Assembly: GCF_001625305.1 (NCBI RefSeq)
Contig: NW_017803490.1
Location: 8,155,655-8,219,654, forward strand
DNA: 64,000 bases
Direction: 5' to 3'
Origin: Branchiostoma belcheri
Taxonomy: Eukaryota
Positions within the stretch are counted from its first letter, which is position 1, and every line of letters starts with the position of its first letter. This document shows, in pieces, positions 12,206 through 33,851 of this stretch. The notes under the pieces are model-generated. The model was not told the DNA's origin and made no database searches. It saw nothing but the letters and a program-made list of their open reading frames with translations. The position numbers and the translations under genes are program-made.

Positions 12206-12833
12206 CCAGCCAACCCTAAGGTAATTGGTACCCAGGCTAAGTGGCTTACACCAGACGTTTAGTGAAATATTTACCGTAAACAAACTTTACGGTTAACCGT
12301 GCCATGTTAGACTTTACTGAGTGTCTAAATTTACAAACTAACAAAAGACCGAGGTCACTGGCCTGTACATAACAGATTAATTAACAAGTCACTTGGAAGT
12401 AAGTACGTCAATGAGTCGCGGTAACAGGTGATATACCCAGGGGTATCGAGTCCTTTTTGGAAATTTGTCTAGTAAGTGAAAAGTCATTCGAGGTAAGCAT
12501 CTAGATGTACATCTAGTTTTTCTAGCTGTACATCATTCGCAGCCCAGTACAAACTGTGCTTAATATCATGATTTCTGTGACTTCGCTCTTCACTCTGGTC
12601 AGGAGCAAGAAAGAATTGACCCCAAATGTAAGTTTCTTACATTATATTTCATTGACATGTGCAAGAAGACTAGGTAAATCTTCAATTCAGTAAATTATCA
12701 ATTACTGCTGCAATTCATAAATGAAACAATTGGCAACTAAATGTTATCCTCTTGTAGTGTGCCATTCTGCAACTCATTTAATGCAGATATCAAGTAATTT
12801 TCTAACTCCAGTATAGTCTCTGTTAGTATCAGG

Positions 12834-15065: not shown

Positions 15066-15164
15066 CTTGCTGTAGTGTGGTGGACGCTGTGAAATATATT
15101 CCTCACTTTTCTGTTGAATTGAAGTTGTTTTCCCAGTAAAATAACACTGCAGCTTTGTTACTGA

Positions 15165-15175
15165 CTATAAATAAG
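15165..15175 (-). promoter_or_regulatory. TATA-like element (CTATAAATAAG) about 100 bp upstream of the gene D start codon, within the conserved 5' flank.
   Basis: TATAAATA motif in a 5' flank that is about 85% identical to gene C's. Confidence 0.35.
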
Positions 15176-15584
15176 CACTTCTCAATCACAAAAACCCCAG
15201 GCCTGAGACCTTCAAAACAATAGGGTTGACCCTAAACCTAACCCTATCGCTCACATGATTGAGATTGAGTTACAACTGCCAATTGAGTACTGTTTTGGCT
15301 TGCAGAGTTCACCCGTGTTGGTACATGTCAGATATAAAATTCATCAAATTGTCAATTACAGCACAATGCATTTACCCAGATCTTCACCTGCACAGTATTC
15401 ATTTATTTAATAGTATGAAGATTCAAGATGTCAAACCTGGGACCAGACTGTAAGGTTTGAACCACTCACAAGTGCACCAGGCAGGACTCCTACTCTTTTC
15501 GATAAGTCTGGTGGGGTGTGGCTCTCCCAAACAGCCGACCAGTTCATTTGACCTCCCATCCCAGGGACCTTCCTAACCGAAGCG

Positions 15585-16645: not shown

Positions 16646-16974
16646 TTGTGTCAATGAACTACTAATACCCTGGCAGAACTGAACAGTAAACTTAACAGTA
16701 AACGTAACTTTAATAATAATAATATACTTCACTTTTCATGGAAACTACTGCACCACTTTAACAGAGTGAACATTCGGTGTCCCCAGATGAACTTTACCAG
16801 CTTGACCTGCGACCTTTCTCTGGTAGATCCCAGACTGGGACTGCTGCAAAGGCTGCTGGGACTGGGAAGGCATTCTGGGATACCGCGCAGCTGTGGCATG
16901 CCCAATAGTTTGCTGTGGATGGAAAACAAGATATTACATAAATTTTGCAAAAATTAAAAATACATGTATCACAT

Positions 16975-17087
16975 TCACAATATACACACACCATATCACA
17001 TACACACACACACATATCACACACACACACACACACACATATCACACACACACACACACATATCACACACACACACACACACACACA

Positions 17088-17127
<40 letters not shown>

Positions 17128-17140
17128 ACACAGACAATTT
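16975..17140. repeat. (CA)n / (CACACATAT)n microsatellite
   Basis: Seen directly. Confidence 0.95.
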
Positions 17141-17329
17141 AGAGTTTTAGCACTATACATTCATCAAAAACTGCATCTAAAATTCAAGATGACCCTTTTC
17201 AGGCTTTAGGGGCAATTCAGATCGTGTTGTTCACTCGTTTTGTTGGGACCAATAGTGGAGGTGTGAACAATCCACTGGCAGATAGTTAGAAAACATTATG
17301 AGCGTCTCTGTCCTTGGTGCTGAATGCCT

Positions 17330-17743
17330 TCACTTAACAACAGTTACTTTTTGAGGCTGTAGGGACAGTGGGTTGTTATGCACTGTGTCTGAGGCACAGT
17401 ATTGGAAGGTGGAGCCCATCCCTCTCCTTCCACTGCCTTTTACCTCCCCAACTGAGGTCAGGTAACCATTAATTTTACACAGGCGCAATATATTTTGCCA
17501 AAGTGCTTCCCTATCAACAATACAACATGCAAATTGTTTTGTTTTGACTGTTGCCATGCCAACCACCTGAGTGACAGGATGATGCCTCTCCACCATGACT
17601 GAACTCATGGGCGGGGCCAGTCCCATGGCAACCGGACCCTTCCCAGCATGCCCCAGTCGTGGGCCCTCTTGCTTGGCTGTGACCTTGGCTGTGATTGTCC
17701 TTGACCCCGGCTTCTGGGCTGTGGATGACCTTGAGCTCGGTGC
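17330..17743 (-). CDS. POC5: POC5 terminal coding exon (C-terminal region). It may contain an optional 87-nt intron.
   Basis: The track ORF contains AMGLAPPMSSVMVERHHPVTQVVGMATVKTKQ, matching the conserved POC5 C-terminal motif 'MGVSPPMSSVVVEKHHPVT'. Acceptor 'ctgtttcaag|GCACCG' at 17745/17744. Stop at 17330. Confidence 0.55.
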   Translation of the reverse strand, partial: APSSRSSTAQKPGSRTITAKVTAKQEGPRLGHAGKGPVAMGLAPPMSSVMVERHHPVTQVVGMATVKTKQFACCIVDREALWQNILRLCKINGYLTSVGEVKGSGRRGMGSTFQYCASDTVHNNPLSLQPQKVTVVK

Positions 17744-18146
17744 CTTGAAACAGTGACACAGCAAAATAACATTAACCACAGAAAATTTGGATCTAAACAA
17801 AGTATTAGCTACAAGATATATACACGTATTATGAAAAAACTTACATAAATACTTGTCAAGGTTGAGATGAGAATTTTATGGAATTTTCAAGCAGGCTGTG
17901 AAAGAACCAATTGTGAGTAAAGCCTAAAGACAGAATTTTCTGTAAAAACAATGCTGAATCATATACATGTAATACATGTACATGCATCTATCACCATTCA
18001 ATGAATGCCACCAGTTTCTGATCAAAAAGCAAATGTGATTGAGCACTTTTAATAAATATGACAAATTTTCAAATAATAAGTTATGAATGAGACCAGTGCC
18101 CCACTAACTACAAAAACAAACGTTAATTTCTGTAACTAAGTCTTAC

Positions 18147-18316
18147 AGTTTTGGTAGCAGGTCTGGCAGTACTGAAGCTGACGGTGGGTCTGGGAGGGGG
18201 CTGCTGGCTGGTGACCACGCGGGGAGGGGCTGCATGGGGGGGTCCTGACTGGTACACCTCCTCGTGGGGCACTACTGTACCCCCTTCCTCAGCCTGGGGG
18301 TCTGCTGGCCTACCTC
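18147..18316 (-). CDS. POC5: POC5 exon (proline-rich region)
   Basis: Acceptor 'ttccttttccaccccag|GAGGTAGG'. Donor 'AAAACT|gtaaga'. The phase is compatible with the flanking exons. Encodes a Pro-rich segment (…PHAAPPRVVTSQQPPPRPTV…). Confidence 0.5.
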
Positions 18317-19193
18317 CTGGGGTGGAAAAGGAAAGCAATAAGACTTACATGTAAATAACATCATATTAGACAATAATCAGATTCTGACTAAAGATTTCTC
18401 TAAAGCACTGTACATGTGTACTTACTTGCACTTATTGAGCTCTTTCATGTTGAGTTTCTTCTACTCTACCAACTGTTAATGTATACGTGACTGGTGAACC
18501 TCTTCTACGGTAAATTCTTCTTACTTAAAAAAAAGCATGCATGTCAGGTGAGCGACAACAGCTGGGATTCAACCTCTTGGTCCAGAGGCAGGGTTGCCTC
18601 TAACCCCTTTTTTAGAGGAACAAGAATTTATTGTAGAAGAGGTTCACCAGTCAGGTATAGATTAACAGTTAGTAGAATAGAAGAAACTCAACAGAGAAGA
18701 GCTCAACAAGTGCAATGAAATTATCTGGTGCTTTCCTTTAACTTAAACTAAAGACTTGAAGAACAAACGGAGCAAAACCAAACCCACCCTGTTCTCCCTG
18801 GTGAAACATGGACATGGCCTCCATGTTGAGGGCACAGACACCGCGCATGAACATGTGCAAGTCGGGTGAGTGACAACAGCGGGAATTTGAACTCCCAACC
18901 TTTTGGGTTGCTTAAACCACTGGACTTAGCACACTTTTTTAGAGCAAGAACTTGATATTTGAAGAATAATCAGAGCAAAAATATGTTTAAAGTTAAAATT
19001 TTTGATCCAACACCTCAAGAGCTTTCAACCTGTCAGATACCTTTGACCCAGTTTTGATGTCACACTTCAAAAAAGCTACGTGACAAGCCTCACTGGTACA
19101 GTCTACTGAGGAAGACCTGAGTGACTTTAAACATGTAACTACCAACAGAGACTTTCATGATAGAGCAAAAATATGTTTTCCGTCAATACCGAC

Positions 19194-19344
19194 CCTGTTC
19201 GCCCTGGTGGAACATGGACATGGCCTCCATGTTGAGGGCGCAGACACCACGCATGAACGCTTTTTTCATCGTCTCCTCGTACTGGTCTCGGTCACCGTGG
19301 AGACGGCTTACCTCATTCCGTGCCGCCTCTAGGGCTTCATTCAA
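19194..19344 (-). CDS. POC5: POC5 exon encoding the conserved 'MKKAFMRGVCALNMEAM' motif
   Basis: Acceptor 'ttccctgccctacag|TTGAATGAAGCC'. Encodes LNEALEAARNEVSRLHGDRDQYEETMKKAFMRGVCALNMEAMSMFHQGEQ, which matches the POC5 'DSMKKAFMRGVCALNLEAM' block. The donor is weak (G|gtcggt) and was placed by phase. Confidence 0.55.
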
Positions 19345-19913
19345 CTGTAGGGCAGGGAACAGGGTAAAGAGAATAAATGGCTGCATGTTGTTTAACATGT
19401 CTCTACATTAATTTTACTTAATGGCAAGCTGAAACAATTTGAGTTTGTTAACACTGAAGTCCTTAAAAGAAAGTAAATTGCCCTTTTTCTTGGCAGCATT
19501 TGGTAGACTTTCAGAACTAAATTAATGATTCCACCAAGCTGAACATCAATCTTTGATTTATCATAAAAATTTGATCACGTTCTTATATACCACTAATTCA
19601 TGATCATGATCAGATTCATTGTAAAACTGAAAGAGTTGATTTTAAGTTGTATTTTATTTAATCAAAATTAATATACTGACAAAAAGTGTAGTAGGTCTCT
19701 GGACTACATGTACATACATGAAAGTATAATGTAAGCATGTTGAAACATTGGCTCCCACAGCTGAACAGTAGCCGACCTCACAGAACAACAGCCAAATACA
19801 GCAGACCTTGCTCCCAACCTACTCCTAACCAGGGTTGGGGGGAGTTCGGGGGCCTAATTTGGCTATATGTGACAGGGGCTTGAAGTTGAAGTATAGGTAG
19901 CAGGACTACTTAC

Positions 19914-20093
19914 TGATGATATCCTTGCTTCGTAATCATTAGTCAGTTGCATGCAGACCTCCTGGGCCTTGGCCTGACACGCCCGCTCCACACGTTGCCT
20001 CCACTTGGCCTCGATAACGCCGTGCCAGGCTGACCAGACACGCGCTGAGATCTTCTGTTCATAGTGCTTACGGGCCAGGTTACTCGCAAACGC
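19914..20093 (-). CDS. POC5: POC5 exon
   Basis: Acceptor 'ttttctcccctccccag|GCGTTTGCG'. Donor 'TCATCA|gtaagt'. Encodes AFASNLARKHYEQKISARVWSAWHGVIEAKWRQRVERACQAKAQEVCMQLTNDYEARISS, matching the POC5 '…[30 protein letters not shown]' block. Confidence 0.65.
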
Positions 20094-20169
20094 CTGGGGA
20101 GGGGAGAAAATAGTGCAGTGTTAGAAATACCCATCTGCAGTCTGCATTTTTCAAAGACATTTTCAATAT

Positions 20170-20500
20170 TCAATATATAGAAGTCCAAATACTACGTAAG
20201 TGTTAATGGGCGTAAAATCCCCTCCTAGCTCTGATTGGCGGATGTTCTTCCGGCAATGAGATATAGGAGGTTACCATGTAATCTTATCTTTCAAATAGCT
20301 CTGTTAGCATTTAATTTAACATTTTAATGTCTTGGGGTGGTGGGACTACGGTGCACAGATATGTCAACTTTGTATATTTAAATGTTAATTGTACCTTTTT
20401 TGTTGTGTGGCGCTGTTAATATAAGTTGTTAACTTGAGTGCATCGTCACACTGTCCTTGTTATGTCTTTATGTTTTGATGAATGAAAAAAAAATATATTG
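20170..20500 (+). repeat. Dispersed repeat of about 330 bp. An inverted copy lies at 36600-36930, about 95% identical.
   Basis: 'gtccaaatactacgtaagtgttaatgggcg…ctctgattggcggatgttcttccggcaatgagatataggaggttaccatgtaatcttatctt…' matches the reverse complement of 36600-36930 almost base for base. Confidence 0.8.
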
Positions 20501-21161
20501 CAGGAAGAAACATTAAGCAACCTGCAATTCTGTAAACTGAAAAAATCAGACTATCCAGAACCATTCCTGACCATGATTCTGAAGAAAGCACGATTTTCGA
20601 TATGTGTGAACTAGAGCTGTGTACCTAAACAAATTTTAGGTACAGGTACAGGTACACAGGTTTAGGTACAGGTCCGGACCTGAACCTGTACCTGAACAAT
20701 TCGACCAGTGTATATGCTCTTCTGAACTCCTGTAATAACTAGAAAAACATTGATATAGGTTTAATTTTTGTTTATGGAGAATGTTCAGATAAAATACAGG
20801 TAAAAGTAAAGATGTTTTTGTTTTCATGAACACACAGGGACCCATTGTTAACCAGCTATTTACACATTTGAGGTCACAAATAGGCATAAAATTGGTGTGA
20901 AATTGTTTAGGTACAGTACCGGTACTGAGGGATTAGGTATTTTGGACCTGTACCTAATCAATTTTTCCGGTACAGTATCGGTACTGCGTACCGGTACACA
21001 GCTCTAGTGTGAACCCAGAATATTATCTGAGCATGGTTTCTAAATATACCGGTAACAAATTTTATGGATAAGGATACAACATGCAGCATATGGATACAAA
21101 AGTTGCAACGTATGGCGACAAAAATTGCAACACAATTCTGGATATGCCACAGATTTCTCAC

Positions 21162-21360
21162 CTCCCTCCTCTCGTCAGCGTGTCGCAGCTTCCACTGCAC
21201 CATGGCCCGCAGCATGTCAAACTTTTCCTTCTGTCTCTGCAGCGCCTGTGTGAGGTTAGAGATGACCTGGTCCTTCCGCTGGATGGACTGCTCGTACGTG
21301 TGGAGTAGCTCTTTTAGGCTCTCTATCTCGTTCTGCAGCTGGCTCACCTCTCGGGCATGT
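21162..21360 (-). CDS. POC5: POC5 exon (coiled-coil)
   Basis: Acceptor 'ttttttag|ACATGCC'. Donor 'GGGAG|gtgaga'. Encodes HAREVSQLQNEIESLKELLHTYEQSIQRKDQVISNLTQALQRQKEKFDMLRAMVQWKLRHADERRE, compared with POC5 '[47 protein letters not shown]'. Confidence 0.65.
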
Positions 21361-21753
21361 CTAAAAAATGTTTAACATCGTGACCAATTAACAGTCTCAC
21401 ACACACACACCGCTTCCAAAAGAATGAGATCTCAGTCTACTAACGGAGGGCATGTTCAGCACCAAGGACAGTGCACAGTTGCCACAAGGAAATTCCAGTC
21501 ATGGCACTGCAACATGATTTCATAGGCTGCTACAAATTTCCCAGTGAACAATTACTGTATGGATAAATTGTGTTGACTCATTCTTACATGACAAATTCAA
21601 TTCCCAGTCCGTCTGTCAATGTCCCTTCTCTATCTGCTCAGACTAACACCCACCAATACCCGCAATTGTGAAACCTCACGTTCCTGACAACCATTAATCT
21701 TTGTGCTACAATGTACTTCTATAAGAAAATGTGAATTACACATAATAATTTAC

Positions 21754-21824
21754 CTTTCCTGCTCTGCCCTCATTTCAAGTCGGTGTCTCTCGATCAGAGC
21801 AATCTTGGCCTGCGTAAACTCAGC
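21754..21824 (-). CDS. POC5: POC5 exon
   Basis: Acceptor 'ctgccaccag|GCTGAG'. Donor 'GGAAAG|gtaaat'. Encodes AEFTQAKIALIERHRLEMRAEQE, compared with POC5 '…WHRMEMRKEKEK'. The phase links exactly to the next exon. Confidence 0.55.
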
Positions 21825-22018
21825 CTGGTGGCAGAATGAAGTATGATAAGACATAAAATATTAAAACAATTGTTTAATTCATGCAGGTCAGAAATTACTG
21901 CGCAAATCTGTTGCAGTGTACTGTTCTTCAGTTTGTTGAATTTCTCTTGAGGAATCTGCACTATATTTCAAACATGGCTAAAACAAACTGACATCCAGGC
22001 TGCAGGGGCATGCGAAGC

Positions 22019-22153
22019 TGAGTGAGTTAGTGAGTGAGTGAGTGAGTGAGTGAGTGAGTGAGTGAGTGAGGGAGTGAGTGGGTGAGAGTGATTGAGTGAG
22101 TGTGAGTGAGTGAGTGAGTGAGTGAGTGAGTGAGTGAGTGAGTGAGTGAGTGA
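22019..22153. repeat. (GAGT)n microsatellite
   Basis: Seen directly. Confidence 0.95.
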
Positions 22154-22384
22154 GTGAGCAACTGCGATAGACTTGACACCAGGTTAGAGTCCCTTACCAG
22201 TATACCCCTCTTGAGGTCCAGTGCCCAGTTGTCCAGATGTGCCTCTATCCTGGCCACAATATTGTGGTACATCAAGGCTTAAACTCCTGTCATTAAAGAC
22301 CTACTGGGAAACCTAGCTGTATTCGGCAGGGAAGAGAACCCATCCCAACTACAATAGACTGGACACCAGGTTAGAGTCCCTTAC

Positions 22385-22581
22385 CAGAACGCCCCTCTTG
22401 AGGTCCAGTGCCCAGTTGTCCAGATGTGCCTCTATCCTGGCCACATCCTGGTCCACAGCCGGCGACGCCGCTGACCGCTCGCTGTACGGAGAACATTCGC
22501 TGACCGTCGACGATTCTTCGCTCTGTGGCGTCTCGGGCGGAGCCACATCAGTGGAGCGTATGGAGAGGCCTGGGGTGATAG
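22385..22581 (-). CDS. POC5: POC5 exon
   Basis: Acceptor 'atttccccaactgcag|CTATCACC'. Donor 'GTTCTG|gtaagg'. Encodes a Ser/Pro-rich segment ending …DVARIEAHLDNWALDLKRGVL. Confidence 0.55.
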
Positions 22582-23408
22582 CTGCAGTTGGGGAAATAAT
22601 GCAGAAATAATACAGAATGTGAGTTAGTATAGAGGCTCCACCTAGCAACTTTGAATTGAACTGAACCATCAGTACTTGTCTTCCTTTTAATGCCCACGAT
22701 CATCATTCATACTGATCATTCTGGCATGCCAATTCTTGGCAAGACTCGGGATTGTAGAACAGCCCATGGACAGGTCAGGGGTTAACAGAGCAACTTGCCA
22801 TTGGGATGGCATACATGTACATACATGTATGTACGACTAATAAGCACCTAATAAAAGGAAAACACACCTGCTAAAGCAAAGCAAACAATGTATAAGGCTA
22901 AGGCATTGAAGATCCTATATGTAAATACTACCGTAACGAACCTGAATGGGTTTATTTTAAGACAGTGTCGAAATGGGACTTTCCGTACACGTCAGTCACC
23001 TGATATGCAAACTATTCTGAGTATTCAACAACTTCAATGCCAAGGTATGTCATGTTTCAAGGCTTGCAATATGACAACACTGGAAAAGCTGGTTTGCCCC
23101 ATTAGCATGTGTTTGTTATGCAATGGCACTGCATGGGTGACCTGTTAGCTATGCAACAAAGCCAGGGTCTTTTATCATTCCTTGACTGAGGCGGTAAACC
23201 GTTATCTTACACACGTCCGTGACGCTTATATGGTTCCGAAGTTTGCTTACTTTGCTTTGCTCAATGTTTAACTGAATTCTTGTCTTGGACAACTTCTGGC
23301 CAAACAACTTCTGTTCGCACCTGTAGGAACTGCAAATATAATTAGATTCACCCCTGCCACTGGACTGAGTAACAAAGTTAACGCAGAAGGAAGTAAGCAG
23401 AAAACAAA

Positions 23409-23585
23409 ATGGATGCAGCTTTCAAGAACTCACAAAACCACCTTGGTGAGGACTGGTTACACTTGGCTTTATATCTGGAACTGGGCTTTGTGAACATACA
23501 GCAAATCCGGAGAGAGAAAACCTTGACATGGCAAGTGGTGTCATTTTACTGGGCAAACAACTTCAACCCAACAGAGGAGTGAGTC
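23409..23585 (+). other. Upstream ORF (58 codons) in the gene E leader. It encodes a degenerate death-domain N-terminal fragment (MDAAFKNSQNHLGEDWLHLALYLELGFVNIQQIRREKT…), then the conserved 'FYWANNFNPTEE' leader, then TGA.
   Basis: Read directly from the sequence. It resembles the DD start 'ELDAAFDILQSELGEEWTQLALELGLKYN' of the main ORF, 43 nt downstream. Confidence 0.4.
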
Positions 23586-23627
23586 AGCAGGGAATATATT
23601 TCACTTAGTCTACAAGACTACGGCAAG

Positions 23628-25856
23628 ATGGCGACCGGAGGTAACACAGAGCCAGAGTTGGACGCAGCTTTTGACATTCTACAGTCAGAGCTGGGGGAGG
23701 AATGGACACAGCTTGCCTTAGAATTAGGGCTGAAGTACAACATTGTCGAGGAAATGGTTACTAAGAGTCCGACAATTCACCTGATATGGCGGAACCGTAC
23801 CATGCTGGAAAAATGGAGGCAACAAGAAGGAAAGCAGGCGACAGTACAGGAACTACTGCTTGCTTTGAAGAAGATAAAAAGACAAGACCTCGTGGATAGA
23901 CTGAAAGACAAGTACACATATCTACAGGATGCTGATCCACAACTCAACACAGACGTCACTGAAAAGTGTCGAGTTGTTGAGACGGTGACGCCTCCGTTAT
24001 CGGATATTTCTACAGGATTCTCGAGTTCACCGCCTAAACAATACTCCACAGAAGAGAGGGTCTTAAAATCTAGCCCACGATCAAAGCAAAGCGTGATTGA
24101 AAATACCCCATCAGTTCCATCTACTGCCACAAGCTCATCGCATTCGTCTGAATCATCTAAAGGCACAAAAAACTTGAGAGTCAAGAAGAAAACTGGTAAG
24201 AAAACAAAAAAGGGCACTAAAGGAAAACAGAGTCAACAAAGTGACAGACATTCGAGCGACCCGAAATTCGTACTGAATGCAGTTAGTAGCATGCAGCTTG
24301 CAAGGGAAAGGCTTAGGAAATGCTACTATCTTGTGGTAGAATCGTCTGCTCGGGAAGAAATTTTGGATACGATTTTACAAATTGATGATAGTAGTCTAGA
24401 CTTGTGCAAGGAATTCATCAGTAAACAATGTAAAGATTTCGATACTGGTAAAACATGGAAATCTTCAATCTATGTACAGATGTTTCCCAAAACTGCCGAA
24501 AGCATCAGCGAATTAAACAGGTACCAAGAAAGTGGCAAGCTGACTGCTGACTTACAGGCAGAGTTTAAAAACATTGGGCTCAAGTGTCCCTTAGACTTAG
24601 AGGTGAAAATTCTGACAATGGAAGAGCTTGAAGAAGAAGTGTCAGAGATAGTGGAGGAAGCTATGGACGTCTTTGTGTTGTCAGTAACCCAGGAAACAGA
24701 TGAAGACTCAGAGGAGTGTACACAAACGCAGGAAACAGATGAAGAATCGTCACAAACCTACGAGGAACTGAGAGACACCTGGAGAGATGCGCTGTTAAGG
24801 ATAACAGCCTGGACAGGTGATGAAGACAAGGTGAAGACCCTGCTACAGGCAGGTGTACAGGTGAACACAGAGAACTCCGAGGGAGAAACACCGCTCTGGG
24901 ATGCAGTGAAGGGCGGACATGCTAACATCGTTACACTTCTGTTGCAGGCTGGAGCAAATCCAGACATGGTTGACGCGAATGGCTCTACTCCACTTCTCCA
25001 TGCTACTTCTCTTGGGTACCTGGAAGTGTGCAGGACACTTGTGTGTGGCGGTGCGGATGTCAACATGGCAGATACAAAACTAACACAAACACCCCTTCGG
25101 ATAGCTATAGAGAAGTCTGACTGGCTGATGCTGACTACGCTTATCCGCCCAGCCAAACACTCATGCGCCAATGACAATGTAAATAAACCTCTGGGTACGT
25201 TTGGTGGCAGCCCGCTCTCTTTGTCTGTTAAAAAGCTCACAGACTTTGAAAAAGGCATTGACACTGAGTCTTCCATGGTAGAGTGCAGGCGTGAGTGGTA
25301 CGAGGAATGGTGTGATCACGTCAGAATTTTCGAGATTTTGTGCAGAGCTGGAGCTAAGAATAAGATTGACTCTACCGACAGACTTGGCCACACATTACTG
25401 CAGTCTGCCTGCAAAGAAGGTTGTGCGATGACAGCAAAACTACTGCTAGACAACGGGGCAGACCGTGACAAACAGGACGACAAAGGTAGAACTCCGATTT
25501 GGGTGGCAGCTTGGCAGGGACACGCAGAGATTGTTAGCGCTTTGATACAAGAAGGTGCTGATTTAAACAAAGCGGACACAGAAAAAAAGACACCGTTGTG
25601 GATAGCTGCAAGAAAAGGGCATGCAAAAGTTGTTAAGACACTTATTGAAGCAGGGGCAGACATTTCTTTACGGGACAACACTGGTATGACCCCACTCCGT
25701 GCTGCTACTAAAAGTAGGCAGATGAATCGGCATGCTGTTGTCTCAATGCTTGTGAAAGCTGCTAGAAGAAAACCATGTGTAGAGAGAGTTAGAAAGACAA
25801 GTTCCAGGGAAAAGTCACCTGGTTATCATACTACTGAGGACTTTGAATATGGCTGA
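23628..25856 (+). CDS. Gene E. A 742-aa DD-ANK paralogue on the opposite strand. Same DD, linker, module and acidic architecture, but a diverged C-terminal ankyrin region that is interrupted.
   Basis: Track ORF MATGGNTEPELDAAFDILQSELGEEWTQLALELGLKYNIVEEMVTKSPTIHLIWRNRTMLEKWRQQEGKQATV… The module (FVLNAVSSMQLARERLRKCYYLVVESSAREEILDTILQIDDSSLDLCKEF…) and the YEELRDTWRDALLRITAWTGDEDKVKTLLQAGVQVN motif are nearly identical to gene B. ANK repeats (GRTPIWVAAWQGHAEIVSALIQEGADLNKAD…). Confidence 0.85.
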   Translation: MATGGNTEPELDAAFDILQSELGEEWTQLALELGLKYNIVEEMVTKSPTIHLIWRNRTMLEKWRQQEGKQATVQELLLALKKIKRQDLVDRLKDKYTYLQDADPQLNTDVTEKCRVVETVTPPLSDISTGFSSSPPKQYSTEERVLKSSPRSKQSVIENTPSVPSTATSSSHSSESSKGTKNLRVKKKTGKKTKKGTKGKQSQQSDRHSSDPKFVLNAVSSMQLARERLRKCYYLVVESSAREEILDTILQIDDSSLDLCKEFISKQCKDFDTGKTWKSSIYVQMFPKTAESISELNRYQESGKLTADLQAEFKNIGLKCPLDLEVKILTMEELEEEVSEIVEEAMDVFVLSVTQETDEDSEECTQTQETDEESSQTYEELRDTWRDALLRITAWTGDEDKVKTLLQAGVQVNTENSEGETPLWDAVKGGHANIVTLLLQAGANPDMVDANGSTPLLHATSLGYLEVCRTLVCGGADVNMADTKLTQTPLRIAIEKSDWLMLTTLIRPAKHSCANDNVNKPLGTFGGSPLSLSVKKLTDFEKGIDTESSMVECRREWYEEWCDHVRIFEILCRAGAKNKIDSTDRLGHTLLQSACKEGCAMTAKLLLDNGADRDKQDDKGRTPIWVAAWQGHAEIVSALIQEGADLNKADTEKKTPLWIAARKGHAKVVKTLIEAGADISLRDNTGMTPLRAATKSRQMNRHAVVSMLVKAARRKPCVERVRKTSSREKSPGYHTTEDFEYG

Positions 25857-26348
25857 TAATCTTGATATCTGGGCTGGAAATACTGGGTTCATTTTATGTA
25901 TATTTTATATATATATATTTTATGTACTTTTGTGCACCGGGTTCTGAAATTGCCACAGAGTGCAAATACCAGTAATTTGCCTGTGGGTGCATCCTACACC
26001 ATGTAGATATTTGCGTACTTGTAGTAGTAGTAGGGTTATATATGTATTACACTGAATAATTGTGAAATTAAACATTGTGTTTTGCAGCCATTTTGAAGAT
26101 AGTTTCCCTTATTATGACGTCTTACTACATTTTGTAATTGTAGTATTAATATTCGTAAGAATGGTAGAAACATTAGTGAGTGGTTTAGAATCTAAGATAA
26201 AGATGAAATAAAACTCCTACAATAAGATTATAACTTAAGGTAATAATTAAAAAAGGTACACATGTACTAGATACACAGCCTTACAACAAGTTACATGCAC
26301 TACTACTACTACGTATGTCAAAGAATCTTGGCCATCTATGTAGCTCAC

Positions 26349-26513
26349 CTGACACCCGAGGTTGCCCAGGGGTTGCCCCGGGTGAAGTGAGGAATGCTGG
26401 GAGACTGGTGGGGCGCTGGGGCTGGGGTGCGCCGGGCTGCGGCAGGGTCAGGTCTTCCCTCCGCAGGGCCTTCATCTCTTCCACCCTTCTCGCTGTGGCT
26501 CCTTCTGAACTCT
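26349..26513 (-). CDS. POC5: POC5 exon
   Basis: Donor 'GTGTCAG|gtgagc'. Acceptor 'gtgactacag|AGAGTTC'. The frame matches track ORF 26281..26523 (…SSEGATARRVEEMKALRREDLTLPQPGAPQP…). Phase is consistent with its neighbours. Confidence 0.5.
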
Positions 26514-26978
26514 CTGTAGTCACTATACATACATTTCACAATGAACAATGATTAATTAACTTTTTATTAAGTTGTTAAATCTTGACACTTTTGCAGTGGT
26601 TTTAATTTTGTAATGAAAAGTACTGAAAGTTTATTCATTAATGGAGCATTTTTGAAGTGTAATCTCCCACATAACAATTCGCACTGACCCCTTCACCATG
26701 AATTCAAATTATTTCTTAATTTGGATTCAAAGGAAACAGAATTTGAGGACTAGCCAAAATTGTAAAATGTAAAATGATATCTGGGTAGAGACTACAATCT
26801 GCTTTAGTAAAATCAGTGATTCTTCTGGTCTTTGTCGACAGAAACTGTCTGTTTATATGCTGTTAATGCGAACTACAAATCCTAAATTTCAAGTCAATCC
26901 TATGATCTATTTAGTGACATGAATCAATGAGATATTTACCAAGTCTCTATCAGTCAGTATCAGTACAGGTAAGCTCAC

Positions 26979-27076
26979 CTGATGACTCATCATACAGCCT
27001 GGCCTGGGTGCCTGTGTTGACCTCTGACCTCTCATCTTCTATGCCACTGATTTCCTCAATGGGTCTGGGAAGAAGG
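26979..27076 (-). CDS. POC5: POC5 exon
   Basis: Acceptor 'ttgtccacctcag|CCTTCTTCC'. Donor 'TCATCAG|gtgagc'. Phase 2 to phase 1, consistent with exons 1 and 3. Confidence 0.5.
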
Positions 27077-27568
27077 CTGAGGTGGACAAAGGGTGGGGGA
27101 GAGAAGATACATGTCAGAAAATAATTTTATCAGGTTGGTAGACTGTAGAGCATGATATTGATAGGATATACATTGCCACTGCCATTATATTGGGGCAGTT
27201 TTTCCTTTACTAAACCAGTAATGTCTCTCACCTGCTTGTGTTTTCTACCTACAATACATCAGCTACATGTACTATGATATAGCAGGTCATTTCCACACGA
27301 CTGTCAAGATGGAAGGATGCCTACTTCTATATCATACCCAAATTGTGTACCTGTGAGACTGGACCGCCAAACATGTACACTAGGTTACAGTAAAGGCAAA
27401 CCTGGGGCCAATATTATTCTTACTAGGAGTGACCACGGCAAGTATCAGTGCTCAGCTCCTTGTACTCTGGTGAGCTGTGCTACACAAACAAGTCAAAAGT
27501 TCAAGAAAGTAAAAAAATCTATAGATTTTTACAATTTTTTTTAGACACAGATTACAGTAGAGACAAAC

Positions 27569-27705
27569 CTTGGATCAATCTTAGGCGTGACCACGGCATA
27601 TCTAAGCAGCTCTTCATACTCCTCCTGCATGCCTGTAGACACGGAGCTACCGGGAGAGTCTGACGGCACCGACGGGACGTTACTGTCGTTGGAACTACTG
27701 GACAT
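27569..27705 (-). CDS. POC5: POC5 first coding exon (start codon at 27705)
   Basis: Encodes [45 protein letters not shown], which strongly matches the POC5 N-terminal '[20 protein letters not shown]' motif. Donor 'CCAAG|gtttgt'. A 3' splice site 'ccctcctacag|TGTCCGCGATG' lies 8 nt upstream of the ATG, implying an upstream non-coding exon. Confidence 0.65.
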
Positions 27706-28366
27706 CGCGGACACTGTAGGAGGGCCTGTGTAATATTATTATTACTAATAGTAGATATAGTAGATCACTTAAACAACTTAGGAGCAGTCACAGTACCCTA
27801 GGGGTGGGGGTACCTGCCAACTGATTTATCATAATTTATATAAATGGTGAGGCTTGAGTTATGTTGATTTGGGCGGCTGCCTTCGTACTACGAATAATTT
27901 TCTGATTCGAAAACTTGAAGTCCTGAAAATGCATATGGCATGCCGGGCCTTGCAGCTTTGATACAAGATATTAAAAACCAATAATTCGTACATTAGTACT
28001 AGACTCTAGAGTACGAACTACTAGTATAGTACAATCTTTGGTCGGGTAAATAAGGACTGACATTTAGTTTTGACGTTTGTAGCTGCTATATTTGTACACT
28101 GCCAAACGTTAACAATGACAGCATGTTAACTTGGTCAACTGGCATATAGTATTTTCAGTTGAATGCTTTAGCATCAGTATTACATGATATTGAATGTCAT
28201 AACAATTTTACCGAGCCAAAACAACAAAAATTTACCCACCTGCTAAACGTAGCCCCCCTCCCCCTTACAGTTACTAACAGTTTGCTTCTATTTTCTCCTT
28301 TGTGCGAACACATTACAAACCCAAACATCCATGAAAGAACTACTAAAAACATATAACGTCTCCTAC

Positions 28367-28445
28367 CTTCACTTTTTCCTCAGAAATCGCGTTTAAAAGA
28401 GAGAAAATGTCGCAAAAAGTGAAGAAAACAAACGCTTCCGCGTTT
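28367..28445 (-). other. POC5: Putative non-coding first exon (5'UTR) of POC5. It ends at donor 'GTGAAG|gtagga' and would splice to the acceptor at 27713. The TSS position is not determined.
   Basis: A donor-like GTAGGA lies immediately downstream (minus strand) of a CCAAT-box promoter. A matching acceptor lies immediately upstream of the ATG. This is inference. Confidence 0.3.
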
Positions 28446-28560
28446 TGGCGACTTCAAAATTATCTTCCGGTGTCCGGAGGCTCCTGATTGGCTGCTGAGC
28501 CGATCTGCGCGTCTGATTGGTCAGACTAAGGTCTCGCGATATGTCACTTTGGCGAGACTT
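28440..28560 (-). promoter_or_regulatory. TATA-less promoter with two inverted CCAAT boxes (CTGATTGG at 28484-28491 and 28513-28520) in a CpG-rich patch. Probably the POC5 promoter.
   Basis: Two ATTGG/CCAAT motifs (NF-Y type) spaced about 29 bp apart. CpG-rich 'cgcgtttt…ccggtgtccggagg…cgatctgcgcg…ctcgcgat'. Located 0.7-0.8 kb upstream of the POC5 ATG. Confidence 0.4.
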
Positions 28561-28989
28561 GGCGAGAGTCAAACCTTTTCACATTCCCATGATGCATAGC
28601 GACAAGGGGTAGAATCTCCCAGGTTGCATAGCGCAAGGATGACGGAACAAAAACAAACTTTTGGCGTTTACAGTTTGATTTTCTGTGTGTTTTGGCGTCT
28701 TGGGGCATTTTGTGTTCAAAAATACAATCCAACAACAATTAGTGTGTAAAATTCTTGTGGTTTATAGACTTCTATAGACGTTTACAAACCACAAGAAGTT
28801 CACACCATATTTTTTAGACAGGTAGACGTTACAGGTGTTTATCGTTGAAGAGGTTCATCAGTCACGTAGAATTAACAGTTAGTAGAAATTCACTGATCGA
28901 AGAATTTCTACGAACTACAGGTGTTTAATGTTTTTATACCATACTTTTCGTTCCCGGGACTTATATGTCTCCAACGGGCATGAGACGAC

Positions 28990-30250
28990 AGTTCCAGGAA
29001 ACGACAGTTCCAGGAAACTGTTTTTACAGGATTTCAGAGGCGTCTAGCTGCAGGAGTTGGCAATTATTTTATGGGCCGGCGGAGGTACTGTTTCTGACAG
29101 GAATACCTAATCTTGGTAATAATATCTTATGGTATAGATTTTATTTGGTGCAATTCTTCTGAAGTTTCTCAGGCCTTCGAAACTGTTTTTAAAAGATTTC
29201 AGAGGCTTCTAGCTGCAGGAATTGGATCTTATGGACCGAGGAGATAGTGTTACTGTCCCTCACAGGAATACATATTCTCCGTAATGATGATTCACTTTTG
29301 CTTTATTGGGTTCAATTTTACCAAGGACATGTGATGAAAGCTTCTTGATTTTACTGAACTCTTCCGCAAGCCTTGGAAAACTGTTTTTATAAGATTTCAG
29401 AGGCTTTTAGCTGCAGGAGTTGGCAATTATCTTAAGGGCCGGGGGAGGTATACTGTCCTCGACACTTACAGGAATACCTAATATCTGGTAATTTTATTTT
29501 ATAGATTTTATTTGGTGCAATTCTGCTGAAGTTTCGCAGGCCTTAAGCTTGGGAAACTGTTTTTAGAAGATTTTAGAGGCAGGAGTTAGCAATTATCTTA
29601 TGGTCCACGGGAGGTAGTGTTACTGTCCCTGGCCGGAATACCTAATATGCGGTAATGATATTTATGATATAGATTGTATTTGGTGCTATTCTACTGAAGT
29701 TTCTTAGGCCTTGGGAAACTGTTTTTAGTAGATTTCAAAGGCTCCTAGCTGCAGGAGTTGGCAATTATCTTAAGGGCCGGGGGAGATAGGGTTGCCGTCC
29801 CTCACAGGAATACATATTCTCGATAATGATGTTTCACTTTTGCTTGATTGGGTTCAATTTTACCAAGGACATGTGATCATAAGCTTCTTGATTTTACTGA
29901 ACTCTTCCTCATGCCTTGGGAAACTGTTTTAGAAGATTTCTGAGGGTTCTAGCTGCAGGACTTGGTAATTTATCTTATGGTACAGGGGAGATACTGTCCC
30001 CGCCAGGAATATTAGTATCTAAACTCGGTACTGATACTTTCAAATGGTGCAATTTTACTGAACTCTTCCTCATGCCTTGGGAAACTATTTTAGTAGATTT
30101 CAGAGGCTCCAAGCTGCAGGAGTTAGCAATTATCTTGTGGGCCGAGGGACCGTAGGAACATTTCCTACTTGGTAATGATATTTTATGGTACAGATTTTAT
30201 TAGGTGCAATTTTGCTGCATTCTTTCTCAGGCCCCGGGCACTGTAGGTAG
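28990..30250. repeat. Satellite-like tandem array, about 180-bp unit x about 7 ('gaaactgtttttacaggatttcagaggc.tctagctgcaggagttggcaattatc…')
   Basis: Period of about 170-190 bp seen directly at 29017, 29185, 29385, 29560, 29725, 29910 and 30080. Confidence 0.8.
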
Positions 30251-31375
30251 TATAAAATAGCGCGATGGCTAATCGGTGCAATTATGAGGATGGCGGAGGC
30301 TTGGAGCGTGTAGCGTATGATACGGGGGTATTTTATTTGCAGGCGTATCTATATAATAAGGACGACAGGCAAGTGAAGGAATATGGCTGCCTATTAGCGC
30401 ACTCAACTGCACAGTTAAACCACTCGGAGGGAGGAGGACTATGGACGACGAGCTGTAATGTTCTACTTAAAAATTCAAGAGTTCTAATGTTCGAATCGAA
30501 AATTCGAGGAGTTCTAATGTTCGACTTCACAATTCGTGGAGATCTAATGTTCGAATTGACAATTCCAAGAGTTCGAATATTCGAATGGACAATTCCAAGA
30601 CTTCGAATGTTCGAAGAGTTCGAATTGCCCAATTGCTCATTCCTATCATGTACAATGTATACCTAAAGCTACTATGGCAGTTTGATTCATCGCCACATCT
30701 CATATATAAAGAGATATATGTATACCTAAAGATGGAAATGCATTGTTGTGGTCAACAGTATAGTGGTTTACCGGGCACAATACTTGTGTGCCATGAAAAA
30801 TTGCCCTGATAACTGTGAAGACTTTTGGCATTGCTCGAGCGACGATTCCGCTGAGATAGAGGCTCAGTAACAATTCAACATGCCTGCATCAGTACAATGT
30901 ACGCCGCTTTCAGATGTCTACAACTGATCTTTCTTAGTAAGGATCCATCATAAATGCTTTAGCAGAAGATTATGTAATCCATCAACTTCTGTGTCCTCTG
31001 AAGCCTGTATAACCACTGTCCATTCAGACCATGGACAGATCAACAGTGCTTATCTTCTCAACCACAACACGGGGCTACCAATGATGCCTCACTTGCCACG
31101 GAATAATCTTTAGAAAAGTAGAAAAAAATGTATACGTACTGTGTACTTTTGCTTTTAGTATTTCGCTGCTCAGAAATCCACATTTGGTACTAGTATTTGT
31201 GTAAGTACTGTTCATAAATCATAATGGAGAGAGATGCCCTAGTTACGTTTCTTGTGCATAATTCATCTAACTGTGCCTTTGACGTTTTATGTCTGAAAAA
31301 AAGTTAGCACTGTCCAGTTTTGCAATAGCGAAAGTAGGTCAATGTATAATTTTCGCAAGAGGATGGTGCAGTGCA

Positions 31376-31600
31376 TTCATTCATTGATTCATTGATTCAT
31401 TCATTCGTTCGTTCATTCATTCATTCGTTCGTTCGTTCGTTCATTCATTCGTTCGTTCATTCATTCATTCATTCATTCATTCATTCATTCATTCATTCAT
31501 TCATTCATTCATTCATTCATTCATTCATTCATTCATTCATTCATTCATTCATTCATTCATTCATTCATTCATTCATTCATTCATTCATTCATTCATTCAT
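31376..31600. repeat. (CATT)n microsatellite. There is also a short (CATT)n at 35521-35556.
   Basis: Seen directly. Confidence 0.95.
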
Positions 31601-33740
31601 TAATAAAATGGGTGCAAGCAATGACCATTTACCATAACCGCTTCATCTGGTGTTGCCGTATCCACTCACTATTCACCAAGCTCAATCATCATAACATCTT
31701 CCATATCTTTACAACCTAATACAAATACACTTCCAGATGATAATGCCTCAGTTGCCACTGAATGGTTCAAAAGTAGAGATACATTCCGAAGCACCCTTGC
31801 CTTTTATATTTTACCCTTGAAGAAGAAATCCACAGGACTGCTCTCCGCACTGAAAAGCTCTTAATCTAGTCAACATTAATACTAACTTGCTCACACCGCT
31901 CAAAAGGATCTGCTAGAATGACTTTAACCTTTTGATAAAAGCTCCGTATTTGATTCTTCTCTCTTAACAAGCTAGTTATCTTTCAGAAGACGCCTTGGCG
32001 GCTTTCTTGAGATAACGTTTAAGAAGGTAATCAGAAGAAATCATGCCACACCAGGGACAGGAGATCTGCGGCAGGCACTTTATTAGTTCCGGGACTTGGC
32101 GCGCTGATGTGATGGGATCTGATAGACGTGAGAGTATTCCATGTTGGAGCTTGCTCCTGATCTATGTCTGAATGGGTGTTAGGCCACACCGCCTTTATTT
32201 TATGGATGACATCCGCGCGCGCATTGATTTTCGCCTGTTCTCAAAAAAAAAAGAGAGAAGGAACAAGGAGAAACTGTACAATTGTTACTCCGTGAAGGAG
32301 GTCAGGACCTCCGGACGGAGTGTTGTAATCGGCTGATTTTTCATGTTCGCAGTCAAAACACTGGGTTCTCTTTGTGTAATCGGCACGCAATTTTATACGC
32401 CGTCTGCGGGCATGCCCGTGTTGATGCACGAATGTGTATTTTTGCCGTTGCTGCTTTCGCGGTCAATGTAATATCGCAGACGCACCCCTACAATTACGAG
32501 GCGAATTGGAATGGTCCAGAAAAACGCGTTGTTTGGAATAGCAGTGGGGTTCAAAAAAGTTCATGCAGATACGGGGTGGTTTTTATAAGTGGTTCCAGAT
32601 GTTTTTGCCCATGGTTAAGAGATGCCAAGTTTTTTGGAAGATGTTCGCAGCCAAAACGCATTCTTCCGTACGTCGCATTTCTGTGTAATTTCGCATGTGG
32701 TGTTGCATTATGTCCGGGATGATGCACGTCTTTTTATTTTACCGTAGCTGTTTTGATATTGGAGTAAATGCTTATTTTCGAAACATCCCCATTTCTTTGA
32801 AATGGTTTCGTCCGTTTATGCAACTGTTATACTGCGCTAATGACGACCAGTCGCGCTGTCCTGATACACCGCGAATGTGCGAGTGTTCCCTGTAGACAGT
32901 CCCGGGAGTCATTTTTTTGCACATTCCAGGAGCCAAACCAAAATACGTTCATGAACCGAGTCCAAAAAACCGAAACGTGAAAATCGGATGATCGGACTTG
33001 ATGTACATTTCTCTTTCTATAGATTGTACACACAATACACACATCTTTTAGATAATCTGGCCATGGCAGGTTAAAAAAAAGTAACCCTGAATCATACTAG
33101 ATTAGCGTAAATGCATGTTAATGCGTTCAAAACAAGAAAAAAATTGTTTCCGGGTATTAATCTCTTGAATCACGGCGCTGAATATTGACGCAAAAATATT
33201 TCGGGCATCGCGCGCCCTTCCCGCGTCACGTGTAGGCATCTCGCATCTCTGATTGGTTGTTGCGTCGATTTATCACACTTCACAGAGAATTGTCGCCAAT
33301 GGCTACTTCTTTTTGTTGCAATATATAATACTTCACGGAGAATTGTCACCTATGGCTTCTTGTTTTTCATTCATCAAAGTTTCCTAAATTTTCGATTAGT
33401 CTTCAATAAGGGAATTCTCAAGACCTGGATATATTTTAAAAACTGTCAGACGTTTCAAGTAGCATCCCCCCACTACCGTTCGCCAGTGCCTGTGTATCTC
33501 ATTACCTGGATATCTACCATTCAGGCGACGTAAAGATTGGATAAATCGTTCCAGGATTCATACACGTTGGCGAAATATTTGTTTCTTTCGCATTGAGTTA
33601 TGTATGTATTACTGGACATAAATAATGATTACAACAAGAGCACACAATACAAAAATATCAAATATGTATTCTCCGATGTACAGGAACATAATTAAACAAT
33701 TAAGTTGATGGCTTGATGCTATGTATTTGTGTAAGCACTA

Positions 33741-33851
<111 letters not shown>

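Follow-up and report, generated by a model that had tools for sequence, protein, structure and literature searches.

Gene E is one of five tandem paralogues (A–E) of a death-domain/ankyrin (DD-ANK) family in a window of amphioxus (Branchiostoma) DNA, the window being the whole 64-kb stretch analyzed here. It is very probably a chimeric gene formed within this tandem cluster, and the upstream open reading frame (uORF) in front of it is evidently a commonplace by-product of recombination among members of a tandem family. Two parental types occupy separate segments of the gene and the breakpoints between them could be mapped: the sequence is of the P type up to 23534, of the D/B/C type from 23535 to about 24756, ambiguous at 24757-24950 and of the P type thereafter. 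Because P-type sequence resumes from about 24950, after a D/B/C-type stretch, we regard gene E as a chimera. Two other Branchiostoma assemblies retain an unrearranged version of the recipient gene at the corresponding syntenic position (loci L001 and L002). The main ORF of gene E is intact, with 742 codons from the ATG at 23628, and the annotated start of the gene should be placed there. The features referred to below are as follows.

23262..23408, + strand: native P-type upstream region, carrying CAATGTTTAAC, CTGGCCAAACAACTTC (23297-23312) and a TATA-like AAATATAATTAG (about 23333-23344)
23372-23408, + strand: relic of an even older MAGG... coding start; in the L003/P0006 alignment, the ancestral ATG is lost and 1 nt is deleted
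23409-23582, + strand: uORF of 57 sense codons plus TGA (23580-23582), translated as MDAAFKNSQNHLGEDWLHLALYLELGFVNIQQIRREKTLTWQVVSFYWANNFNPTEE and stop
23409..23534, + strand: what is left of the original CDS start, its ATG and the next 41 P-type DD codons, equal to the first 42 codons of the uORF
23528, + strand: second upstream ATG in a good context, opening 26 codons with the stop at 23606-23608
23534..23535, + strand: 5′ recombination junction, ATGGCAAG/TGGTGTCATTTTACTGG, with P-type sequence to 23534 and D-type upstream flank from 23535 (alignment)
23535..23627, + strand: imported D/B/C-type upstream flank of 93 nt (alignments), holding the TTTTACTGGGCAAACAACTTCAAC element that had been read as FYWANNFN
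23628..24756, + strand: imported D/B-type coding part, DD plus linker (sliding identity, blastn, Pfam Death match at aa 21-94)
24757..24950, + strand: near-invariant family block containing the 3′ junction, TYEELRD.WRDALLRITAWTGDEDKVKTLLQAGVQVNTENSEGETPLWDAV; D/B-type before it and P-type after it (alignment)
24951..25856, + strand: original P-type ankyrin-repeat C-terminal part, ending ...TTEDFEYG and stop

Two parental types in gene E

The recipient was identified by comparison with L001 and L002, which are collinear with the window from ~16700 to 36000 and each carry a complete P-type gene. Their homology to the window stops at 23534 and resumes at 24751. On the 5′ side, window 22897-23534 is collinear with L001 9490-10127 and L002 9480-10126, which include the upstream regions of P0007 and P0002, at 86-87% identity. 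The first 42 residues of P0007 matched 23409-23534 with 90.5% identity (tblastn, E = 1.5e-18), and the relic DNA is 92% identical to L001 and 90% to L002. The equivalent of ATG 23409 is the true CDS start of P0007 and P0002, whose products begin MDAAFKIVQNHLGEDWLHLA(L/F)YL(E/D)LGFVNIQQIRREKDLIWQ and run on into a complete DD. Since the P0007 product carries PF00531, the relic is homologous by descent to a bona fide DD. On the 3′ side, 24751-25602 of gene E is 92.4% identical to the P0007 gene of L001 and ~45% identical to D and B; P0002 aa 340-723 matched the C-terminal part of gene E at 83.6% (tblastn).

Between these two ends, ~1.27 kb of P-type sequence has been replaced, and the window lacks the 1,272-nt middle of the P-type gene. 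In blastn comparisons, 23538-24947 was 86.5-86.8% identical to D and P0001, and 24083-24947 was 89.5% identical to B. The imported tract is a mosaic: D and P0001 share ~93% identity with it at 23775-24068, and gene B shares 96% at 24207-24431. Since it is a conversion mosaic, we kept dN/dS in the tract to pairwise values, which were 0.2-0.5; in the C-terminal part omega was 0.34 at dS 0.18. The main ORF thus shows the apparent signature of purifying selection. Part of the low omega in the tract may be owed to recent conversion from functional paralogues and not to selection acting on E.

These comparisons indicate the following history. A P-type member, the orthologue of P0007/P0002, first occupied the locus, its CDS starting at ATG 23409. 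The incoming sequence was a copy of the 5′ part of a D/B/C-type paralogue: its ATG, DD and linker, together with the 93 nt that flank them upstream. This copy took the place of P-type codons 43 to about 466. The old start and 42 old DD codons were left stranded upstream of the new ATG, and reading from the old start runs accidentally into the imported non-coding flank; the flank supplies the last 15 codons of the uORF and the TGA that ends it. The 5′ junction is non-homologous, with a microhomology of ~2 nt (AG), and is evidently a product of illegitimate recombination. The 3′ junction, to judge from the alignment, is homologous and lies somewhere within the roughly 195-nt block 24757-24950, a partial copy of which is present in gene A at that gene's own module junction.

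Chimeras produced by inter-paralogue conversion or unequal recombination are well known in tandem families, including human CYP21A2/CYP21A1P, RHD/RHCE, opsin and KIR genes and plant NLR clusters, and a chimera in a tandem immune-type gene cluster is unsurprising. As in those families, the parental types of gene E are identifiable, one junction falls in a highly conserved block, the tract is a mosaic with later conversion patches, and another member of the cluster, gene A, is likewise modular and chimeric. Gene E differs from them in that the donor tract brought an upstream non-coding flank and a start codon into the recipient CDS. Because these were inserted inside the CDS, the start of the recipient was orphaned as an upstream ORF. 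Gene E is a clean and fully traceable case of the one-step birth of a uORF, in which an imported start and its flank strand the old start. It also differs from classical conversion, its non-homologous 5′ junction being easier to reconcile with one-ended homologous repair or template switching.

Domain shuffling and new architectures have been described genome-wide for the innate-immunity and apoptosis families of amphioxus (Zhang et al. 2008, PMC2575513); ankyrin combinations are unmentioned in that paper. Gene E likewise belongs to a Branchiostoma death-domain family in which rearrangement yields a new combination, here a D-type DD on a P-type ankyrin module, but it represents a swap between close paralogues of identical architecture. 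Genes E and A both illustrate how amphioxus death-domain families diversify, with entire DD-plus-linker modules being exchanged at a conserved recombination block.

The shared upstream element and start-site use

According to the initial annotation, a conserved FYW.NNFN leader precedes all the paralogues. The leader is real as a nucleotide segment of roughly 90 nt common to all five DD-ANK paralogues, but its reading as a peptide did not survive. The nucleotide element behind it is TTTTACTGGnCAAACAACTTCAAC, whose core, AAAC[A/T][A/C]C, lies 38-142 nt upstream of all 13 of the family starts examined, including those at the unlinked loci L003-L006. Within the 64 kb, exact copies of the 14-mer CAAACAACTTCAAC number three, all on the sense strand and upstream of B, C and E; D and A carry it with two mismatches. 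The leader of gene D contains ttttactgggaaaacaacttcaa as described, and the matches in A and B are indeed weaker, the element being present but altered (CTTTTACTGGACAAACAACCTAAAC in A, a 9-nt insertion inside the element in B). In gene C, FYWPNNFNSTDE is in frame with the CDS as had been stated, but no ATG opens that frame; the tool-assigned start was a TTG under the bacterial code.

The leader of gene E is 0.80-0.86 identical to the other leaders, and identities among leaders range from 0.77 to 0.91, compared with 0.67-0.86 at third codon positions. The leaders differ by indels of 8, 15, 25 and 56 nt, some of which are not multiples of three. Because of these indels and the missing upstream ATG, FYW.NNFN is evidently a translation of non-coding DNA, and on the same grounds we rejected the possibility that the open frame of gene C makes the leader an N-terminal coding extension. 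The element is what we read as promoter-proximal DNA close upstream of the start codon, and it is best annotated as a candidate cis-regulatory DNA element common to the family, not as a peptide. Its core is also present in the P-type gene's own upstream region (23301-23312); gene E therefore has two tandem copies of the family upstream module. The relic and the FYW.NNFN element are unrelated pieces that meet at the junction 23534/23535. Among transcription-factor fits to CAAACAAC, forkhead-like RYAAAYA and Myb-like CAACTG are matched by just some copies.

The imported flank also holds a TATA-like AATATAT at -34 and the start context CAAGATGGCG. The TISU consensus around the initiator ATG is SAASATGGCGGC (PMC3177215), and TISU-type starts in human have a median 5′UTR of 12 nt (PMC2518114). 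The family starts resemble it, with contexts such as CAAGATGGCGGC in C and P5 and CAAGATGGCGAC in E: the match is 12/12 in C and P5, 11/12 in E, D, A, B, P1 and P8, and 8-10/12 in the others. TISU elements, which lie ~30 nt or less from the transcription start site and bind YY1, were defined in mammals with mapped start sites; the amphioxus match is a lead from sequence and may be no more than a CAA(A/G)ATGG start context combined with Met-Ala-Ala/Gly coding. With a TATA-like box ~34 nt upstream, the transcription start site would fall a few nucleotides from the ATG. The TATA-like box is missing from distant paralogues. Upstream ATGs occur as near as -27 or -34 in several paralogues, none being closer. 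These positions hint at a transcription start close to the main ATG, beyond the uORF.

An mRNA begun at the old P-type promoter would include the upstream ATGs at 23409 and 23528, both in strong contexts, and translation of the main ORF from it would be poor. Because such a long transcript would be poorly translated, yet the main ORF is intact and appears to be under purifying selection, we consider it most likely that transcription of the main ORF begins beyond the relic, within the imported segment. The uORF would then be missing from the productive mRNA or be carried by a minor long isoform only. One could also imagine that the family uses a compact promoter, made up of CAAACAACTTC, sometimes a TATA-like box, and a TISU/YY1-like ATG, to make near-leaderless mRNAs, and that the two modules of gene E give rise to a long isoform in which the relic uORF and that at 23528 gate the chimeric protein, for example, so that it is made only under stress or infection. 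A recombination accident would in that case have become, by co-option, a translational switch in a gene of innate-immune type. We think this improbable. If anything here merits experiment, it is the AAACAAC element common to the family and the TISU-like start.

The upstream open reading frame as a by-product

The ORF opening at ATG 23409 is as initially annotated, with 57 sense codons and a TGA, although 45 nt rather than 43 separate it from the main ATG (23583-23627). Its ATG lies in a strong context, with A at -3 and G at +4. In tblastn searches, the uORF peptide matched the DD N-termini of all five paralogues, in agreement with the resemblance noted earlier, including those of gene C (E = 3e-6, 51% over 35 aa) and of gene E itself (E = 5e-5, 42% over 33 aa). 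The description of it as a vestigial death-domain start was correct in substance, the relic being a real P-type DD start. The Pfam Death model (PF00531) gave no match to the 57-aa peptide at E ≤ 1, and matched the main proteins at 2e-12 to 5e-15; the relic spans just the first 42 residues of a real DD, a six-helix domain of roughly 85 residues. A word-indexed protein search with the uORF peptide as query returned zero candidates sharing three 5-residue words. The tie of the relic to P0007 and P0002 was found via the N-termini of the proteins matching the full gene E protein.

The initial annotation also considered the leader as a conserved regulatory uORF or 5′UTR element, which would control translation of the DD-ANK genes. 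The strong context of its ATG and a stop only 45 nt before the main ATG would suit such a role, as would the downstream part of the leader, which is common to all paralogues. The conservation, however, is confined to that part. Alignment of the upstream regions of the five paralogues confirmed the shared leader, but the DD-like stretch 23409-23534 is present in gene E only, with no counterpart in A-D, and the uORF is absent upstream of A-D and of eight other family starts. The 220 nt before the start of gene C are free of ATGs, the sole upstream ATG of gene D is at -191, and the upstream ATGs of other starts are at scattered, non-homologous positions. Nor is the reading frame preserved in the leader, and P0007 and P0002 use the same ATG as their true CDS start.

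Substitutions in the relic also argue against a regulatory uORF. Along the E lineage, they number six non-synonymous and one synonymous, compared with two and five between P0007 (P7) and P0002 (P2), an asymmetry that on 14 changes in total gives a Fisher p of 0.10. With mostly non-synonymous changes in the E lineage and no uORF in the other paralogues, no sign of selection on the uORF was found. A structured cis-regulatory RNA in the leader was rejected as well: Rfam covariance models gave no match at E ≤ 1 over 22800-24000, the RNAalifold consensus of the leaders reached -3.2 kcal/mol with a positive covariation term, so that no conserved fold was found, and the single-sequence z of +1.04 indicated no unusual stability. 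We therefore consider it decidedly unlikely that the uORF is a conserved regulatory element.

Regulatory uORFs are typified by those of ATF4 and GCN4. Gene E is similar to them in having an AUG in good context upstream of the main ORF and a short intercistronic spacer, but its uORF is unconserved in paralogues and orthologues and is of accidental origin. Since a stranded start and an accidental read-on into the imported flank produced it, the uORF is evidently a by-product and not a conserved device.

Assembly, splicing and local duplication

The chimeric arrangement is known from one assembly, and a mis-join of paralogues or haplotypes in a highly heterozygous genome could in principle create it. 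The 3′ junction lies inside a 195-nt block that is >93% identical among paralogues, a classic place for a mis-join, and gene D, perhaps along with all of A-D, has the opposite orientation to that in L001 and L002. The window, however, is free of gaps (no runs of N), the 5′ junction has no homology able to cause an assembly collapse, and the 742-codon reading frame is unbroken across the 3′ junction. Moreover, the inserted tract is 86-89% identical overall to the window's paralogues, 96% in the best block, and identical to none of them; because it differs from every one, misplaced reads from A-D are excluded as its source. An artefact is thus very unlikely. The syntenic comparators differ from the window by dS ~0.18, and the chimera event could be a haplotype-specific variant. 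In exact-product look-ups in public assemblies, the 742-aa gene E product, the uORF and P0003 were absent as called genes. No inverted repeats flanking gene D were found that might have caused its inversion relative to L001 and L002. The sole product of the inverted-repeat search around gene D was a palindrome at 11982-12195.

The end of the uORF contains a good donor-like GTGAGT (GGA/GTGAGT, 23578/23579), which raises the possibility that the relic is a functional upstream coding exon, spliced to a downstream acceptor to give a hybrid N-terminus. The GT is kept there in four of the five leaders in the window, all but that of B, and in L002 P1. This stretch is, however, also present in paralogues that have no upstream exon to splice; the eight family genes with examined loci are single-exon, except for one modelled intron in P0002; and splicing to the single acceptor that looked plausible on visual inspection (cttttgacattctacag, exon from 23685) would give an out-of-frame junction. 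Such an exon is highly improbable. A 5′UTR mini-intron in the leader (GTGAGT ... CTACAG/CAAGATG) was rejected, as it would be ~40-45 nt long, has no pyrimidine tract and lacks the AG in gene E.

That the relic is a partial copy of gene E's own DD exon, duplicated locally, as had been proposed from the resemblance of the uORF peptide to E's DD N-terminus (42% over 33 aa, E = 5e-5), is scarcely credible against its 90% identity over 42 aa to the P-type N-terminus of P0007, the collinearity of its flanking upstream DNA with that of the P-type genes and the P-type C-terminal third of E. Because the relic, its flank and the C-terminal third are all P-type, replacement inside a P-type gene is the simplest history.

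Origin of the ORF upstream of gene E

The window carries five single-exon DD-ANK genes, A to E.

Single-exon DD-ANK genes of the window
Gene A: ATG at 2307, minus strand; DD-ANK, single exon, runs off the window
Gene B: 7028-4944, minus strand; DD-ANK, single exon
Gene C: ATG at 11450, minus strand; DD-ANK, single exon
Gene D: 15065-12834, minus strand; DD-ANK, single exon
Gene E: 23628-25856, plus strand; DD-ANK, single exon

The best protein matches were from Branchiostoma in every case. The RefSeq B. belcheri model P0003 shares 99% identity with parts of genes B and A, of which it is a fusion. These matches mark the window as amphioxus DNA, very probably that of B. belcheri. The ORF that the initial annotation placed at ATG 23409 is present upstream of gene E (uORF; 23409-23582, plus strand) and translates to MDAAFKNSQNHLGEDWLHLALYLELGFVNIQQIRREKTLTWQVVSFYWANNFNPTEE, 57 sense codons followed by TGA. 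Since the main ORF of gene E begins at 23628 (product, 742 aa), the spacer between the two is 45 nt, not 43 nt as first given. The reported resemblance to the DD N-terminus was borne out by tblastn, which matched the uORF to the DD N-terminus of each of the five genes (E 3e-6 to 6e-4); the Pfam Death model did not detect the peptide.

Two other family proteins, P0002 (B. belcheri "Ankyrin-2") and P0007 (LOC144908438), referred to here as P-type, begin with MDAAFKIVQNHLGEDWLHLA(L/F)YL(E/D)LGFVNIQQIRREKDLIWQ, followed by a complete death domain. The first 42 uORF codons (23409-23534, plus strand; the relic) are 90.5% identical to residues 1-42 of P0007 (E = 1.5e-18), and gene E from 24681 onward is 82-84% identical to the C-terminal 230-380 residues of P0007 and P0002. 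No part of the window closely matches residues 43 to about 340-448 of these proteins, and nothing corresponding to 23409-23534 was found upstream of genes A-D in a 430-nt upstream alignment. For comparison, we fetched the genomic loci of P0007 (L001, single-exon) and P0002 (L002), both of which are collinear with the window from ~16700 to 36000. Window 22897-23534 is 86-87% identical to L001 9490-10127 and L002 9480-10126; P-type homology ends after 23534 and picks up again at window 24751, equivalent to L001 11400. As a separate observation, window 23372-23408, a P-type 5′UTR, is what remains of an older coding start, MAGGSKAEN..., as in P0006 (L003 2990-3040): ancestral CAACATGG became GTTAACGC with the loss of 1 base, and translation shifted to an internal Met.

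Gene E as a chimera and rearrangement of the cluster

Gene D and the P0001 gene of L002 are 86.5% and 86.8% identical, respectively, to window 23538-24947; gene B is 89.5% identical to 24083-24947. At the 5′ junction, P-type sequence runs to ...ATGGCAAG (23534) and gives way to a D-type upstream flank, TGGTGTCATTTTACTGG..., with about two bases of microhomology common to both sides. At the 3′ end, alignment A5 places gene E as D/B-type to ~24756 and P-type from ~24951, the 195 nt in between being nearly identical across all family members. Together, the switch at 23534 and that bracketed by A5 indicate that gene E is a chimera, in which P-type codons 43 to ~466 were replaced by sequence of a D/B/C-type paralogue, namely its leader, ATG, DD and linker. 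Mis-assembly is unlikely to have produced this arrangement, even though it is known from one assembly only, as the window has no N runs, the 5′ junction lacks homology able to collapse in assembly, the imported tract is identical to no paralogue in the window, and the 742-codon frame is unbroken across the 3′ junction.

The imported tract is of mosaic identity. While 23775-24068 shows ~93% identity to D and P0001, 24207-24431 (225 nt) matches gene B (about 6100-5880, minus strand) at 96%, with flanks at 80-89%, a patch that points to recent gene conversion within the cluster. The 93-nt leader of gene E is closest in layout to that of gene C, an 8-nt TCAGCAGG/TCACCAGG segment being common to both and missing in D and A. 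This mosaic identity implies that conversion went on within the cluster. Judged by sequence, the near-invariant TYEELRD... block (24757-24950 in gene E), a partial copy of which also marks the module junction of gene A, behaves as a recombination hotspot of the family.

Recombination between paralogues commonly yields chimeric genes in tandem, immune-type families. Particular to gene E, by comparison, is that the donor tract entered the recipient CDS together with its upstream flank and ATG, giving rise to the uORF in a single step. Domain shuffling has been documented for amphioxus death-fold families (PMC2575513).

Other rearrangements were noted in the cluster. Gene A (1-2307, minus strand; ORF intact over at least 769 codons) is a second chimera, with a D/B-type DD-plus-linker half up to a partial TYEELRDDWRDE block, joined there to a C-type linker (RRLEFALNAV...) that is followed by a second, full TYEELRDAWRDALLRITAWTGDEDK block. 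Relative to L001 and L002, gene D stands in inverted orientation, and the same may hold for all of A-D (window 12784-15319 against L002 341-2905; L001 3-2002 against window genes A and B); in L001 and L002 a D/B-type neighbour and the P-type gene share a strand. One breakpoint of the inversion falls between 15320 and 15883. The inversion could be part of a complex rearrangement behind gene E, or a scaffolding difference.

The leader and the predicted expression of gene E

Alignment of the 430 nt upstream of the five ATGs revealed a shared block of ~90-130 nt adjoining each ATG, in the order TTTTACTGGnCAAACAACTTCAAC, AGGAATATATTTCAC, CAGCAAGATGGCG. The 'FYW.NNFN' leader described initially is common to the paralogues as a nucleotide element and not as a peptide: with indels of 8, 15, 25, 56 nt and more between leaders, no reading frame is kept. 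That of gene C is indeed an in-frame extension of the CDS, but without an ATG. Among close paralogues, leader identity (0.77-0.91) is about equal to third-codon-position identity in the adjacent CDS (0.67-0.86), and is somewhat above it only in comparisons with gene C; most of the resemblance between leaders is therefore attributable to recent duplication or conversion.

Across 13 family start regions, including those of the unlinked single-exon P0004, P0005, P0006 and P0008 and the P-type's own upstream region, the AAAC..C columns are invariant and their flanks unalignable, the core lying 38-142 nt upstream of the ATG in all 13. P0004, P0005 and P0008 share 42-52% protein identity with gene E over best local alignments, and P0006 61% over 59% of E. 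Exact copies of the 14-mer CAAACAACTTCAAC are limited, over the 64 kb of the window, to the regions upstream of B, C and E. A separate copy of the element, CTGGCCAAACAACTTC (23297-23312), and a separate TATA-like AAATATAATTAG are present in the P-type region upstream of gene E, so that two upstream modules lie in tandem in front of this gene. About 385 nt before the relic ATG lies a further, degenerate copy, TCAACAACTTCAAT (23025-23038, plus strand; 3 mismatches), which may be fortuitous, as the window-wide count at 3 mismatches equals chance expectation.

The uORF is confined to gene E, and upstream ATGs at other family starts are few and scattered. In the 126-nt relic, the E lineage (polarised with P0006) has 6 non-synonymous changes and 1 synonymous change, and P0007 and P0002 differ by 2 non-synonymous and 5 synonymous substitutions, a direction that fits relaxed constraint, on small numbers (Fisher p = 0.10). 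The leader RNA matched no Rfam family and had no conserved or unusually stable fold. Examined by paralogue presence, relic substitutions and Rfam/RNA fold, the uORF showed no sign of selection. For the main ORF, pairwise omega was 0.2-0.5 in the imported tract; against P0007, the P-type C-terminal part gave 0.34 (dS 0.18), compared with 0.26 at dS 0.18 for the orthologous pair D/P0001. These values suggest that gene E is a working gene, and recent conversion from working paralogues could contribute to the low omega.

A long transcript from the old promoter would carry AUG 23409 (A at -3, G at +4; 57 codons) and also AUG 23528 (G at -3, G at +4; 26 codons, stop 19 nt before the main AUG). By established scanning rules, such upstream AUGs would strongly depress translation of the main ORF. 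The family's main ATG context, CAAGATGGCG(G/A)C, matches the mammalian TISU consensus SAASATGGCGGC (PMC3177215) at 10-12 of 12 positions; in human, the TISU element marks AUGs whose median distance from the start site is 12 nt (PMC2518114). Genes A, C, D and E have a TATA-like box ~34 nt before the ATG, and several paralogues have upstream ATGs as near as -27 or -34, with none nearer. Taken together, the cost of a long transcript, the TISU-like context, the TATA-like box and the upstream-ATG spacing suggest a family transcription start site within ~25 nt of the ATG. The "leader" would then be mostly promoter, and the imported segment would have brought its own promoter into gene E. We lean slightly towards the imported promoter driving gene E, with the relic uORF outside the productive mRNA.

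Other features of the window and family

At 11982-12195, upstream of gene C, two 99-nt arms (96% complementary) around a 16-nt loop form a palindrome that resembles the remains of a MITE or hairpin transposon. The gene C linker (repeats at 10700-11000 and about 10000-10150, minus strand) contains a 20-residue unit, TSSRDKDRENKESTIKGVKT, repeated five or six times in tandem, and three EDSVESTQTQ(E/K)TD units missing from other paralogues. Antisense ORFs at 8776-9825 and 12916-13686 (plus strand; 349 and 256 aa), which run across the ankyrin-repeat regions of C and D with a repetitive SAPAC.KMLT.SACP pattern, were rejected as genes and regarded as a by-product of repeat composition. The unlinked single-exon P0006 (L003), P0004 (L004) and P0008 (L005) lie within the span of larger unrelated host genes, presumably in introns; among the hosts are a COMPASS-Shg1 gene and a WD40/IFT-like gene.
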